This document shows, one piece after another, positions 3,663-7,379 of a stretch of DNA of 26,385 nucleotides. The stretch lies in assembly GCA_964465775.1 (NCBI GenBank), contig CAYXLQ010000011.1:1-26385 (forward strand). The letters run 5' to 3'. A program made the translations under genes and the position numbers. Below the pieces are notes generated by a model. The model was not told the origin of the DNA. It worked only from the letters and a program-made list of their open reading frames with translations, and made no database searches. This DNA is from an uncultured Clostridiaceae bacterium. Its GTDB lineage: Bacteria; Bacillota; Clostridia; TANB77; CAG-465. Within the stretch, counting starts at the first letter, position 1; every line of letters begins with the position of its first letter.

Positions 3663-3737
3663 TGGCTGGGGTACTAGGATTCGAACCTAGGAATATCGGA
3701 ATCAGAATCCGATGCCTTACCACTTGGCGATATCCCA
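3663..3737 (-). tRNA. tRNA-Gln (anticodon CUG), 75 nt with encoded CCA
   Basis: The reverse complement is TGGGATATCGCCAAGTGGTAAGGCATCGGATTCTGATTCCGATATTCCTAGGTTCGAATCCTAGTACCCCAGCCA. It has a 7-bp acceptor stem (single A5/C68 mismatch), a 3-bp D stem and an anticodon stem TCGGA/TCCGA with loop TTCTGAT. The T arm is CTAGG-TTCGAAT-CCTAG, with discriminator G and U1-A72, as in bacterial tRNA-Gln. Confidence 0.9.
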
Positions 3738-3739
3738 AT
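3696..3739. repeat. Left att-type direct repeat (inside the intact tRNA-Gln)
   Basis: tcggaatcagaatccgaTgccttaccacttggcgataTcccaat versus 7300-7343 tcggaatcagaatccgaAgccttaccacttggcgataCcccaat. Confidence 0.85.
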
Positions 3740-3907
3740 TTATATTAAAATCATAGAATCCTTATGTAGCAACACTTTCGTGGCTTTATTTTTCTTTTTT
3801 AACATACCCATTCTTACATTTTGAAAGTAAAAAGGGCATCGGATTCGTAACCATATAATATCACATATTTTTACAAAAGTCTATACATTTTTAATCACTT
3901 ATTTTGT

Positions 3908-3930
3908 CAGTTGGCGCGCGCACCATAAAA
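3908..3930. repeat. Left arm of a GC-rich inverted repeat (cagttggcgcgcgcaccataaaa)
   Basis: Its reverse complement matches 6033-6055 at 20 of 23 positions, including an 11-nt perfect core cgcgccaactg. A core this GC-rich is very unlikely to recur by chance in DNA this AT-rich. Confidence 0.7.
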
Positions 3931-3964
3931 CAAAGAAAAATCAAATATTCAACTTTTGAGTGCG

Positions 3965-3999
3965 AAAAAAAGCAATAGGTTTTCTATTGCTTTTTAATT
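3965..3999. terminator. Bidirectional hairpin terminator in the island's non-coding left end
   Basis: 10-bp stem aaagcaatag / ctattgcttt with loop gtttt, flanked by an A6 run upstream and TTTTTAATTT downstream. Confidence 0.5.
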
Positions 4000-4210
4000 T
4001 ATACGCTTAACTCCTTATCAAGTTTTTCTGTTAGAACAACATATTTTTTAGGATTTTCTATATTAAATCTTACTTTCAAAGATGTAATATTTAGTTCTTT
4101 TAGTGTTTTATCTAAGCAAGGTTCAAAAGAGTTTATACTACTAAATATCTATACAATTAACCAATATATGGTAATATTATGGCGTAATTTGTAGAAAGGA
4201 ATTGATAATT

Positions 4211-4462
4211 ATGAAAATAACATTAGACACTGAAACAAATGAAACACTTTGTCCTCCTGAATTCTTTGCATATATTAGAAGTATTAACGATGCAGCAGAA
4301 TTGACAGGTGGCAAAAATACACTTACACCTGAAGCCTATTTAGACAAACTTGTAAAAGACTGCTCTAAGAAAATTGTAAATAAAAGAGAAAAAGCAAAAA
4401 CAAGAGCAAGAAATTCAAAAGCAAGTAGAAGTAATAAAATGAGAACAATACTTGGTGCATAA
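4211..4462 (+). CDS. Hypothetical 83-aa protein with a Lys/Arg-rich C-terminal tail (possible small DNA-binding or excisionase-like protein; function unknown)
   Basis: The ORF track starts at TTG 4202. ATG 4211 is preferred because AAAGGA lies about 10 nt upstream. The sequence MKITLDTETNETLCPPEFF... ends in KREKAKTRARNSKASRSNKMR. Confidence 0.5.
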   Translation: MKITLDTETNETLCPPEFFAYIRSINDAAELTGGKNTLTPEAYLDKLVKDCSKKIVNKREKAKTRARNSKASRSNKMRTILGA

Positions 4463-4504
4463 AAACAAAATACGACATTGTTTTCATATATTATATGGTT
4501 GAAT

Positions 4505-4537
4505 ATAGGTAGGCACACAAATATGCCTATCTATTTT
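4505..4537 (+). terminator. Possible weak terminator/hairpin between orf83 and the xre gene
   Basis: 10-bp stem ataggtaggc / gcctatctat (one G-U pair) with a 10-nt loop, followed by TTTTAT. Confidence 0.3.
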
Positions 4538-4557
4538 ATATAAAGGAATATTTAATT

Positions 4558-4776: not shown

Positions 4777-4833
4777 AATAAGACATCTCATACCTCTTTT
4801 AGTGTGTGTAAGGCAATGAAATGTCTTAACTTT

Positions 4834-5868
4834 TTATATTCTATTTTTCCTAATATCTTCTAAATGGTCTTGAAAAGTTCTTCCATATCTTGATGTTGTT
4901 GTAGATGTTGATACTACATCTTTTATTATTATATTCTCTCTTACTGATGAAAGTTTTTGCATAGTTTCAGCTATTAAAGGCTCTCCTAAATCAAACAATT
5001 CACAGTTTTTATTTTTTAATCTTACGCATAAATAATAATATTTTAAACCAAATAAATTTTTAATAGTAAGCACTAATTTATTTACTTCTATTATATCATC
5101 TAATAATATTACAATATCATCATTAGAAACAAGAAAATTTGATGTAATTACAATCTTATTATTACTATATAAAATATCTTGCTTACTCATTTCTTCATCT
5201 GCTAATTTTAGAAATCTTTCTGCTTCTCCTGCTCCATGTATATCTACTAGATTTGATACTTCTTCACTCTCAATAGGAGATATAACATTTTTAGATGATT
5301 TTATTATGTACCAAATCAATCCTATAAATATTAAAGGAAGATACAGCCAAGTATTTCCCCAAGGTGATTCATTTGATACTCTACTTACTTCATTATAATA
5401 CTTGTATGCATATGTTTTATTAACACCAGCTGATATATTATTACTATTTTTAATAATATCATCGATCAACTTATATTCTGCCTTATAATGCTCCCTATTT
5501 GTAATTTCTGTAAATTTTAATGTACTAAAATTAATAGTTCTTATTTCATTTAAATCAAGATTTCTATATTCATTCATATCAATTTTCATATCTACACAAA
5601 ATAAATATCCATCTTTTTCAATTCCTAAAACAACTATACTTTGATTTTCTATAACTTTTAGTTCATATACTTTTGCATCTTTAACATCAAACTCAAAAAC
5701 ACGATGCCCTTTATCATATAAACTATCTAATACTAACACACTATCTATTTTGTATTTATTCATATATGTAAAAATAATTGTTAATGGAATAATTGCAATA
5801 ATTATCATAATTAATAGACCTACAACAAAACTTCTATTTTTCTTTTTTATATTACCTAATATACTCAT
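4834..5868 (-). CDS. Two-TM membrane protein of unknown function (island cargo)
   Basis: 344 aa. It has a basic N-terminus then TM1 (about residues 14-35), a beta-rich ~140-aa segment predicted extracytoplasmic, then TM2 (LYLPLIFIGLIWYII) and a ~150-aa cytoplasmic C-terminal domain. RBS is GAGAGG. I recognise no catalytic motif. Confidence 0.65.
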   Translation of the reverse strand: MSILGNIKKKNRSFVVGLLIMIIIAIIPLTIIFTYMNKYKIDSVLVLDSLYDKGHRVFEFDVKDAKVYELKVIENQSIVVLGIEKDGYLFCVDMKIDMNEYRNLDLNEIRTINFSTLKFTEITNREHYKAEYKLIDDIIKNSNNISAGVNKTYAYKYYNEVSRVSNESPWGNTWLYLPLIFIGLIWYIIKSSKNVISPIESEEVSNLVDIHGAGEAERFLKLADEEMSKQDILYSNNKIVITSNFLVSNDDIVILLDDIIEVNKLVLTIKNLFGLKYYYLCVRLKNKNCELFDLGEPLIAETMQKLSSVRENIIIKDVVSTSTTTSRYGRTFQDHLEDIRKNRI

Positions 5869-6032
5869 ATACTCTTACCTCTCGTTTTACTACACTGACA
5901 TAGTAACACATTATGAAAAACTATTCAATCTGTTTCAAAATATTAGTTATTAAATGAATTGAATTTTGTATTATATAGTTCTACATTTTTTGTTCTTTTA
6001 TTAAAAGCATATTGTGGCTTATTTAACAAAAT

Positions 6033-6055
6033 TTTTATGGTAATCGCGCCAACTG
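6033..6055. repeat. Right arm of the GC-rich inverted repeat (ttttatggtaatcgcgccaactg)
   Basis: Reverse complement of 3908-3930 with 3 mismatches. Confidence 0.7.
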
Positions 6056-6172
6056 TTTCAAATTCAATAGGCTTACCTTTATTTCTTTCAAGAGTTGTTA
6101 ATAGTTCACTTATTTTTTATCAATTATCATTTTATATCTCCATTCTTTTTAAATTGCCCCTCTTTATATTTA

Positions 6173-7117
6173 TTATACTCTCATTTTAATTCGTTCGTTA
6201 TTCATACATAATCGGTCTAGTGGATTATATTTATCAAAATCTGCCTGTAAATCTTCTCCGAATAAATCCACATATATTTGTGTTTGTTCTAGTGTGCTAT
6301 GTCCTAATAACTTTTGTAACTTTAAAGCATTGCCACCATTTTGTATATATTCTTTTGCAAAATAATGCCTAAACAAATGCACTCCTGTTTTCTTTACACC
6401 TCTTTTGGTATTATATTTCTTTATAAGGTTATTCAATGCATTTTCAGTTAGTTGCATTCCCTCTAAATTACAAAACAAGTAGTCATCTGATTCCCCATTT
6501 CTATATTTTAGATATTCAAGTAATACTTTTTTTAGCGCTTTTCCCATTGGAATTATTATTGTTTTTCTATTTTTAGTAACTCGCACATATATAATATCAT
6601 TGTCAAAATCTAAATCACCAATTTTTATATTTATTAAACTTCTTCGCCTTACACCTGTTGCCACGAAAAAGTTAATAATAGCCCAAGTCCTATATTCTGC
6701 AAAACTACAAGTTTTTAAATTTGGCTTTTTTAATAATGTTCTTATTTCCTCTCTCGTGTAAAGTTGTGGTATTCCCTTTTCCTCTTTAAGTTGTTCTATT
6801 ATAAATTCATTTTCAATATAACCATTTCTTACAAAGTAATGTATAAAACACCTTATTGACCTTAATCTTATATTTATTGTAGTTATTTTTAGTCCATTTT
6901 CTCTCATATCTATTATGAATTCATTTATTATATCTTTTGTTAGTTCGGTTGCTACTTGCATTTGTGGGTAGTTTTCATTTATATATTTTATAAAATAATT
7001 AAAATGTTCTTCATAAAGACTTATAGTTCCATTTGCAAGATTTCTAATTTTGCAATCTGCAATGAATTCCTCTTTACCCTCTTTAAGACTAGATAAAACT
7101 TTTTTCATTTGTATCAT
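6173..7117 (-). CDS. Tyrosine recombinase / phage-type integrase
   Basis: The ORF runs to 7138, but ATG 7117 (MIQMKKV...) has AGAGAGGTG 7 nt upstream. Catalytic signature present: ATGVRRRSL (Arg), HLFRHYF (HxxR), LLGHSTLEQTQIYV (His...Tyr nucleophile). The N-terminal SAM-like core-binding domain is also present. Confidence 0.9.
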   Translation of the reverse strand: MIQMKKVLSSLKEGKEEFIADCKIRNLANGTISLYEEHFNYFIKYINENYPQMQVATELTKDIINEFIIDMRENGLKITTINIRLRSIRCFIHYFVRNGYIENEFIIEQLKEEKGIPQLYTREEIRTLLKKPNLKTCSFAEYRTWAIINFFVATGVRRRSLINIKIGDLDFDNDIIYVRVTKNRKTIIIPMGKALKKVLLEYLKYRNGESDDYLFCNLEGMQLTENALNNLIKKYNTKRGVKKTGVHLFRHYFAKEYIQNGGNALKLQKLLGHSTLEQTQIYVDLFGEDLQADFDKYNPLDRLCMNNERIKMRV

Positions 7118-7168
7118 TTTTTTACACCTCTCTTTCATATATTTTTTTGTAAAAAATACACAAAAAAA

Positions 7169-7215
7169 GGGGCATCGGATTCGGTATTTTTTACTAACCG
7201 AATCCGATGCCTTTT
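7169..7215. terminator. Strong 15-bp-stem hairpin (bidirectional terminator-like) upstream of int, built from tRNA anticodon-arm-like sequence
   Basis: ggcatcggattcggt (7171-7185) pairs with accgaatccgatgcc (7197-7211). TTTT follows on the plus strand and TTTTTTT follows on the minus strand. 7200-7213 (gaatccgatgcctt) is identical to tRNA positions 3705-3718. Confidence 0.55.
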
Positions 7216-7300
7216 GAGGTATAAAAAGAGAGTAGCAATACCCTGTAAGTATTGCTACTCTATGTTTCTATGTTTTTTAATTCTTTGGCAGGTCTTATGT

Positions 7301-7341
7301 CGGAATCAGAATCCGAAGCCTTACCACTTGGCGATACCCCA
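7301..7341 (-). pseudogene. Orphan 5' half of tRNA-Gln (acceptor 5' strand, D arm, anticodon arm); right att repeat
   Basis: The reverse complement is TGGGGTATCGCCAAGTGGTAAGGCTTCGGATTCTGATTCCGA, after which similarity to the tRNA ends and no T arm is present. It carries G5, which would pair correctly with C68 of the intact copy. Confidence 0.85.
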
Positions 7342-7379
7342 ATATATTTGTACAGAGTTAATGTTAACCCTGTACTCTT

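Follow-up and report, generated by a model that had tools for sequence, protein, structure and literature searches.

In the Islander collection, 3760 of 3919 islands are accompanied by a 3' fragment of the target tRNA gene (tDNA) and only 159 (about 4%) by a 5' fragment, a configuration that the method permits with the 5' fragment lying upstream of the tDNA (PMC4383910). Here we describe a 3.6-kb locus in a 26,385-nt stretch of DNA from an uncultured Clostridiaceae bacterium (assembly GCA_964465775.1, contig CAYXLQ010000011.1, positions 1 to 26,385; hereafter the window), in which a tyrosine integrase gene, int, and three further genes lie between a complete tRNA-Gln(CUG) gene and a detached 5' half of the same tRNA. 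We consider it likely that this locus is an integrative element residing in tRNA-Gln(CUG), that its own attachment site (attP) bears tRNA positions 1-43, and that its integration left a hybrid tRNA. The locus joins the known minority class of 5'-fragment tRNA-gene islands: the polarity that the original prediction regarded as unusual is indeed rare, but it has precedent in the Islander collection.

Like the Islander islands that have a 5' fragment and an anticodon-centred attP (PMC4383910), the window element contains its integrase gene, presents an intact tDNA together with a fragment in the same orientation, has the 5' fragment upstream of the tDNA over an interval within 2-200 kb, and would have its crossover in the anticodon stem-loop; the tyrosine-recombinase assignment of the enclosed gene is supported by Pfam and by conserved motifs. 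It differs from this class in its very small size (3.6 kb) and in the acceptor-stem mismatch of the rebuilt tRNA, and its polarity switch is traceable inside a single integrase family, the remaining clades of which show the classic layout. A second comparable system is the tRNA-dependent lysogeny of actinobacteriophages, in which the host tRNA is likewise broken at the int-proximal junction and the loss is made good by tRNA sequence from the element. Those phages share ~10 bp with the host attachment site (attB), do not rebuild the gene and bring a separate complete tRNA (PMC10865867). The window locus is no case of such lysogeny: a shared block of 42 nt reconstitutes the tRNA gene at the opposite junction, where the sole tRNA lies, and the element has no further tRNA.

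The only tRNA that ARAGORN identified in the window is tRNA-Gln(CUG), on the minus strand at 3663-3737, which scores 61.4 bits against the Rfam tRNA model with its 5:68 pair marked as non-canonical. A repeat finder placed this gene in a direct repeat of 51 nt and 92% identity (3693-3743 and 7297-7347), and BLAST of the tRNA against the window matched 7341-7300, also on the minus strand, to tRNA positions 1-42 in linear count with 95% identity and 2 mismatches; as position 17 is absent, linear positions 1-42 correspond to canonical positions 1-43. The two copies lie 3604 bp apart in direct orientation. Past the anticodon stem the partial copy reads CATAAGACC... and lacks a T arm, and neither ARAGORN nor Rfam called a tRNA there. 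These results bear out the repeat around the integrase and three cargo genes that had been described from sequence inspection, as well as the description of the right-hand copy as a truncated 5' half with the complete gene at the far end. Hereafter, we refer to the junction at the intact gene as attR (anticodon loop at 3701-3707) and to the junction at the displaced half (7300-7341) as attL, where the anticodon loop at 7305-7311 is the presumed crossover region.

The copies differ at two bases, each located on the 5' side of the anticodon loop: when read as tRNA, these are A5 and A26 in the intact gene but G5 and U26 in the partial copy. The difference at position 26 had been noted correctly, but its letters had been given for the plus strand. 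The predicted A5/C68 mismatch of the intact gene was confirmed: G5 of the displaced half would complement C68 of the retained 3' half, and A5 of the intact gene does not pair with it. Furthermore, G5 is also present in tRNA-Gln(CUG) genes and halves from the hosts of related elements. The calculated minimum free energy is -20.6 kcal/mol for the intact (hybrid) tRNA and -24.8 kcal/mol for a native gene reconstructed with G5 and U26.

To place this arrangement within its integrase family, we retrieved the genomic contexts of several integrase clades. A tRNA 5' half beside int was found only in the clade of the window (integrases 77-92% identical), which comprises the window and loci L081-L084 and L186. 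In L081 and L083 (integrase P0004, 77%), positions 1-42 of tRNA-Gln(CUG) lie ~170 nt upstream of int and are flanked by a YgjP-like gene; the L082 and L084 contigs start partway through this 5' half; and in L186 (integrase 91.7%) the half adjoins ligA. The last of these loci was the one further attL recovered by look-ups with the 86-amino-acid protein of the element, which otherwise returned cousin elements targeting spo0A. None of L081-L084 and L186 shows a complete tRNA, these contigs ending before the far end of the element, and the window is the only complete example of the reversed clade that we obtained; metagenome and viral scans revealed no further close relatives of it. In the three host flanks (gatB, ygjP-like and ligA), the tRNA is always cut after position 42/43. 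Alignment reveals that the sequences preceding tRNA position 1 are unrelated between contexts and that homology extends from position 1 through the stem into CAT(A/T)AG... and the two hairpins upstream of int. This identical truncation, with homology downstream of it in three host contexts, argues that the cut after position 43 is a property of attP and not a local deletion. The family comparison and the element-owned boundary at position 43 thus support the proposal that the element restores the 5' half of the gene.

In contrast, integration of the classic relatives rebuilds the tRNA at its 3' side and leaves behind a 3' fragment. These metagenomic elements (L085/L090/L091, L178, L174, L094 and L278) encode integrases 62-66% identical to that of the window, share its order of tRNA sequence, hairpins and int and carry the same module of a helix-turn-helix (HTH) protein and an 83/86-amino-acid protein, both conserved at 44-49% identity. 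Next to the genes for integrases P0016 and P0018 (66%) stands an intact tRNA-Gln(UUG), with positions 30-76 repeated at the far end, 6.8-8 kb away; P0021 (66%) is also adjoined by an intact tRNA-Gln(UUG), with positions 13-76 at the far end, and P0014 (64%) by an intact tRNA-Tyr, with positions 32-86. An intact int-proximal tRNA was likewise present in L094 (tRNA-Gln(CUG); integrase 65%) and beside P0024 from a sister clade (tRNA-Gln(UUG); 62%), with no far-end fragment seen in either case. The order tRNA, hairpin 1, hairpin 2, int is common to all classic layouts compared. At their far ends, a promoter-like motif and, after it, one arm-like site stand 100-130 nt ahead of the attR core, and this region aligns with 3835-3883 of the window, which shares both features near its own attR.

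The 5' extent of the tRNA identity block varies within the classic family. The block of L178 (8195-8260) spans positions 13-76, and in L091 (8230-8300), where the block covers 30-76, a remnant of the D arm (CAAGCGGTAAGGCACCA) persists upstream of it; both variants are possible intermediates toward capture of a 5' half. Many classic relatives are larger than the window element and have resolvase, Rep-like or relaxase genes together with 10-bp iterons. Arrays of these iterons (AAAATAACGC-like) follow the 86-amino-acid protein gene at 13690-13910 in L085, 14260-14480 in L090 and 4730-4960 in L091, and some of the iteron-bearing relatives also encode resolvase, RepA_N/Rep3-like and relaxase proteins, all of which are missing from the window element. 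A search of the window island for tandem repeats and iterons yielded nothing resembling the 10-bp iterons of the relatives.

Homology between the attR-proximal end of the classic elements and the element end beside the intact tRNA places the crossover inside the intact gene and assigns the 5' part of this gene to the element. Since the classic identity blocks start at 30-32 and the window block ends at 43, the crossover is further narrowed to positions 30/32-43. We infer that it falls in the anticodon loop or on the 3' side of the anticodon stem, the usual symmetric site, that the intact gene would consist of element positions 1 to about 35 joined to host sequence from about position 36 through the CCA end, and that the displaced half at 7300-7341 would be the original 5' half of the host gene. 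A5 and A26 would then be of element origin, and the A5/C68 mismatch would stem from the joining of an element 5' half to a host 3' half, the displaced host half having G5. The far-end homology and the G5/C68 complementarity support, as a likely history, the previously suggested chimera of an element-derived 5' half and a chromosomal 3' half.

These observations suggest a model in which a 3.6-kb element, consisting of int, a variable cargo gene, an HTH regulator and an 83/86-amino-acid protein, would enter the anticodon-loop region of tRNA-Gln(CUG) downstream of gatB. Its attachment site would bear a promoter-like motif, a 12-mer resembling an integrase site and tRNA positions 1-43, in place of the usual segment from the anticodon to the 3' end. 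Recombination would strand the host 5' half beside gatB and int (attL); at the far end (attR), the element 5' half, with its promoter, would become joined to the host 3' half. The predicted outcome is a working, slightly mismatched hybrid tRNA (A5/C68), and the element is presumably still mobile today.

The tRNA sequence recurs in the putative regulatory regions of the element. Between the displaced half and int lies hairpin 1 (7229-7261, minus strand), a terminator-like stem-loop detected by a terminator scan, whose equivalent was found at the same location in all relatives by spacer alignment and folding. Just upstream of int, hairpin 2 (7171-7211) consists of a 15-bp inverted repeat followed by a T run; its arms carry GGCATCGGATTC, equivalent to tRNA positions 23-34, in one direct and one inverted copy. 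In most relatives the arms of hairpin 2 likewise mimic the D-stem and anticodon-stem segment of the target tRNA, and in L085 the exact tRNA matches reach 13 nt and 11 nt, compared to a mean of ~6 in shuffled sequences. A search for the 12-mer GAATCCGATGCC revealed four exact copies in the window (none expected from shuffles): one in the intact tRNA, one in each arm of hairpin 2, and a single minus-strand site (3835-3846) that precedes the intact tRNA by ~100 nt and has a T run after it. All four lie inside the presumed element; a fifth copy, with one mismatch, lies within the partial tRNA, in the presumed host half. It is the A26 version of the sequence that the three other element copies reproduce without a mismatch.

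These 12-mers flank the core on both sides: the P side has one, and the P' side has two in inverted orientation. The accessory sites look like the core half-site and not like a separate arm sequence. We propose that they serve as accessory binding sites for an integrase devoid of an arm-binding domain: the 12-mer at 3835-3846 is a candidate P-arm site, and hairpin 2 is a candidate integrase-binding (P'-arm) site and/or a terminator that may insulate int. Action of the 12-mer upstream of the tRNA through RNA pairing with the tRNA body was also considered and rejected, as the classic relatives retain the site yet have no complementary tRNA segment at attR.

Directly upstream of the 3835-3846 site on the minus strand, a promoter scan detected a consensus-like motif facing the intact tRNA (3883-3855; TAGACT, 17 nt, TATTAT, with an upstream TG). 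It is the obvious candidate for an element-supplied promoter of the hybrid tRNA. The original prediction had seen no strong promoter upstream of the intact copy, only a TATGAT box at 3750-3755; the motif at 3883-3855 is a better candidate and is conserved in position among relatives, the L178 version reading TTGACT, 17 nt, TGATAATAT. The position of the 12-mer site beside it is conserved in L085, L090, L091 and L178. Further upstream, a bidirectional terminator-like hairpin (3964-4001), which produced sub-threshold matches to hairpin-type Rfam families, separates the region of the 86-amino-acid protein gene from that of the tRNA promoter. At the other junction, the scan returned no promoter-like site on the minus strand from gatB to the partial tRNA, and transcription of the native tRNA-Gln therefore probably depended on either the gat operon or a promoter within gatB.

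Three other histories could account for parts of this arrangement. If the element had brought or duplicated a full tRNA-Gln, so that both junctions once held full genes, and the T-arm half beside int had later been deleted in this genome, the layout would be an accident of decay, and the variable 5' extent of the identity blocks in the family (positions 13-76 in L178, the D-arm remnant of L091) does make full or near-full attP copies plausible as intermediates. Such decay must nonetheless have struck alike in three contexts (gatB, ygjP-like and ligA) and among integrases 77-92% identical, cutting each time after position 42/43 and leaving homologous CAT(A/T)AG... sequence with the two hairpins behind the cut. 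Independent identical deletions are unlikely, and we regard the scenario as quite improbable for this locus; it is better read as a description of how the attP of the clade originated. The A5/C68 mismatch, on the other hand, could have arisen in the absence of chimerism, through a later point mutation or a base error in the assembly, with the copies differing merely by drift. They are separated by just two single-base differences, and two apparently frameshifted genes elsewhere in the window (gatA and an RNase R-like gene) suggest decay or an imperfect consensus. However, both differences fall 5' of the anticodon loop, as a crossover in the loop predicts, the A26 form recurs in the other 12-mer copies of the element, and G5 is the state found in related tRNA-Gln(CUG) sequences, which leaves mutation or error unlikely. 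Finally, the presence of an intact tRNA of the same isotype in or beside the element, with the host copy broken next to int, superficially resembles the actinobacteriophages mentioned above (PMC10865867), and by their logic the host tRNA would have been destroyed through a short core and the intact tRNA-Gln would be wholly element-borne cargo. We deem this very improbable indeed: site-specific recombination spares host DNA, so a 3' fragment of the host gene would be expected beyond the element, and BLAST of the tRNA against the window located none left of 3663; the shared block is 42 nt long instead of about 10 bp; and the intact tRNA occupies exactly the position of the attR core in the classic relatives, about 100-130 nt from the promoter and the 12-mer.

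Several observations nevertheless weigh against an integrative element that leaves a hybrid tRNA. The empty-site search suggested with the original prediction was run on GatB loci and did not find an uninterrupted gatB-tRNA-Gln junction: among 80 GatB loci from species-representative genomes, the 40 closest (65-69% identity) have no tRNA-Gln beside gatB, and the nearest GatB relative (P0121, in L182), only about 72% identical in DNA, has no tRNA there either. Neither an excised circle nor a circular junction was recovered, viral scans included, and no second complete reversed element was found, the other contigs ending inside the element. The likeness of hairpin 2 to the target tRNA is weak in L094, unlike in most relatives. 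In addition, A5 is a single base in an assembly with two apparent frameshifts, and a mutation or base error at this position is conceivable.

The integrase gene (6173-7117, minus strand) encodes a 314-amino-acid protein of the XerC/D-like two-domain type, with a Pfam Phage_integrase match at 4.6e-34 and N-terminal SAM-like domains. Its R, HxxR, H and Y motifs are invariant across the alignment of the clade. The protein resembles the dimer resolvases XerC, XerD and XerA in its two-domain architecture and catalytic motifs, and its best PDB matches (XerC-like, XerA and XerD, at about 1e-21) and best NCBIfam similarities are to members of this group. Unlike them, it scores far below the NCBIfam equivalog cut-offs (158.5 bits compared to 220 for XerA, 156.6 to 335 for XerC and 149.4 to 330 for XerD), and its gene is located in a mobile element bounded by tRNA repeats and not in a dif-type system. 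It also differs from the heterobivalent (lambda-type) integrases, since Pfam assigns SAM-like core-binding and catalytic domains to its 314 residues and no N-terminal arm-binding domain. Its metagenomic homologues number in the hundreds; in phage and plasmid databases, no relative above about 35% identity was found, and the only DNA matches to the window were tRNA and gatB fragments.

Three genes make up the rest of the element. The core module comprises a conserved protein of the 83/86-amino-acid group (4211-4462, plus strand), 44% identical to its L085 counterpart and 90% to P0241, and a 72-amino-acid Xre-type regulator (4558-4776, plus strand; Pfam HTH_3, 7.6e-13), 49% identical to its L085 counterpart. 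The former has no match in Pfam, NCBIfam, PHROGs or PADLOC, and its AlphaFold model (predicted local distance difference test score, 70.6) matched no fold in the PDB. The third open reading frame (4834-5868, minus strand) predicts a 344-amino-acid membrane protein with hydrophobic segments that had no family match across the same four collections; its slot is variable, relatives carrying other genes there. The module itself is shared with cousin elements (L183-L185 and L187-L197) that encode an 83-amino-acid protein, the HTH regulator and a different, 327-amino-acid integrase and are inserted at the 3' end of spo0A; a displaced 54-amino-acid Spo0A_C fragment was called at the far end in L185, L187, L188 and L190.

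On the attL side, the host flank begins with gatB (7380-8816, minus strand; Pfam GatB_N and GatB_Yqey). Two gatCAB sets stand here in tandem, and this gatB closes the second of them; on the minus strand, 38 nt separate its stop codon from the displaced tRNA half. The tRNA-Gln gene would originally have stood 38 nt after this second gatB, adjoining the amidotransferase that acts on Glu-tRNA(Gln). The duplicated operon spans 7380-13500 on the minus strand, with an intact downstream set and, in the upstream one, a gatA broken into two open reading frames, at 12991-13194 and 12039-12998, which match the Amidase profile at positions 49-95 and 141-445. An RNase R-like gene on the same strand (14999-17150) is also split, into 16134-17150 and 14999-16150, by an extra C near 16140 that shifts the frame, and this second apparent frameshift points to pseudogenes or assembly indels. 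The gat duplication is echoed in the ~72% identical relative, where P0121 (L182, 10001-12355) is called as a 784-amino-acid GatB-GatB fusion with GatB_N and Yqey each present twice. On the attR side, a 375-amino-acid open reading frame (2443-3570, minus strand) with a Cys-rich C-terminus lies just downstream of the intact tRNA; it gave a sub-threshold MULE match and no other family. Exact-protein look-ups of GatB and of this flanking gene returned no match.

The locus provides a clean, small example of the minority mode of tRNA-gene integration, in which the element must bring both a promoter and a 5' half. What it adds to the known cases is a switch from 3' to 5' restoration that can be traced within one integrase family, a hybrid tRNA bearing a mismatch, and accessory sites that resemble the tRNA itself. 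It also carries a lesson for annotation, namely that a tRNA half devoid of its T arm beside an integrase gene may be a host remnant and not the copy of the element. Together with its close classic relatives, the window could be used to ask what fixes the polarity of restoration and whether hybrid tRNAs with mismatched stems function, and the pair could test whether tRNA-like accessory sites guide integrases lacking an arm-binding domain.

A bolder proposal, which we hold to be unlikely, is that the clade flipped its restoration polarity recently, capturing a host tRNA-Gln(CUG) by its promoter and 5' half and uncoupling this tRNA from gatCAB. Expression of the slightly defective hybrid would then hinge on an element promoter lying between integrase-binding copies of sequence from the D and anticodon arms of the same tRNA. 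If this were true, the family would possess a built-in link between the state of the element and the tRNA supply of its host.

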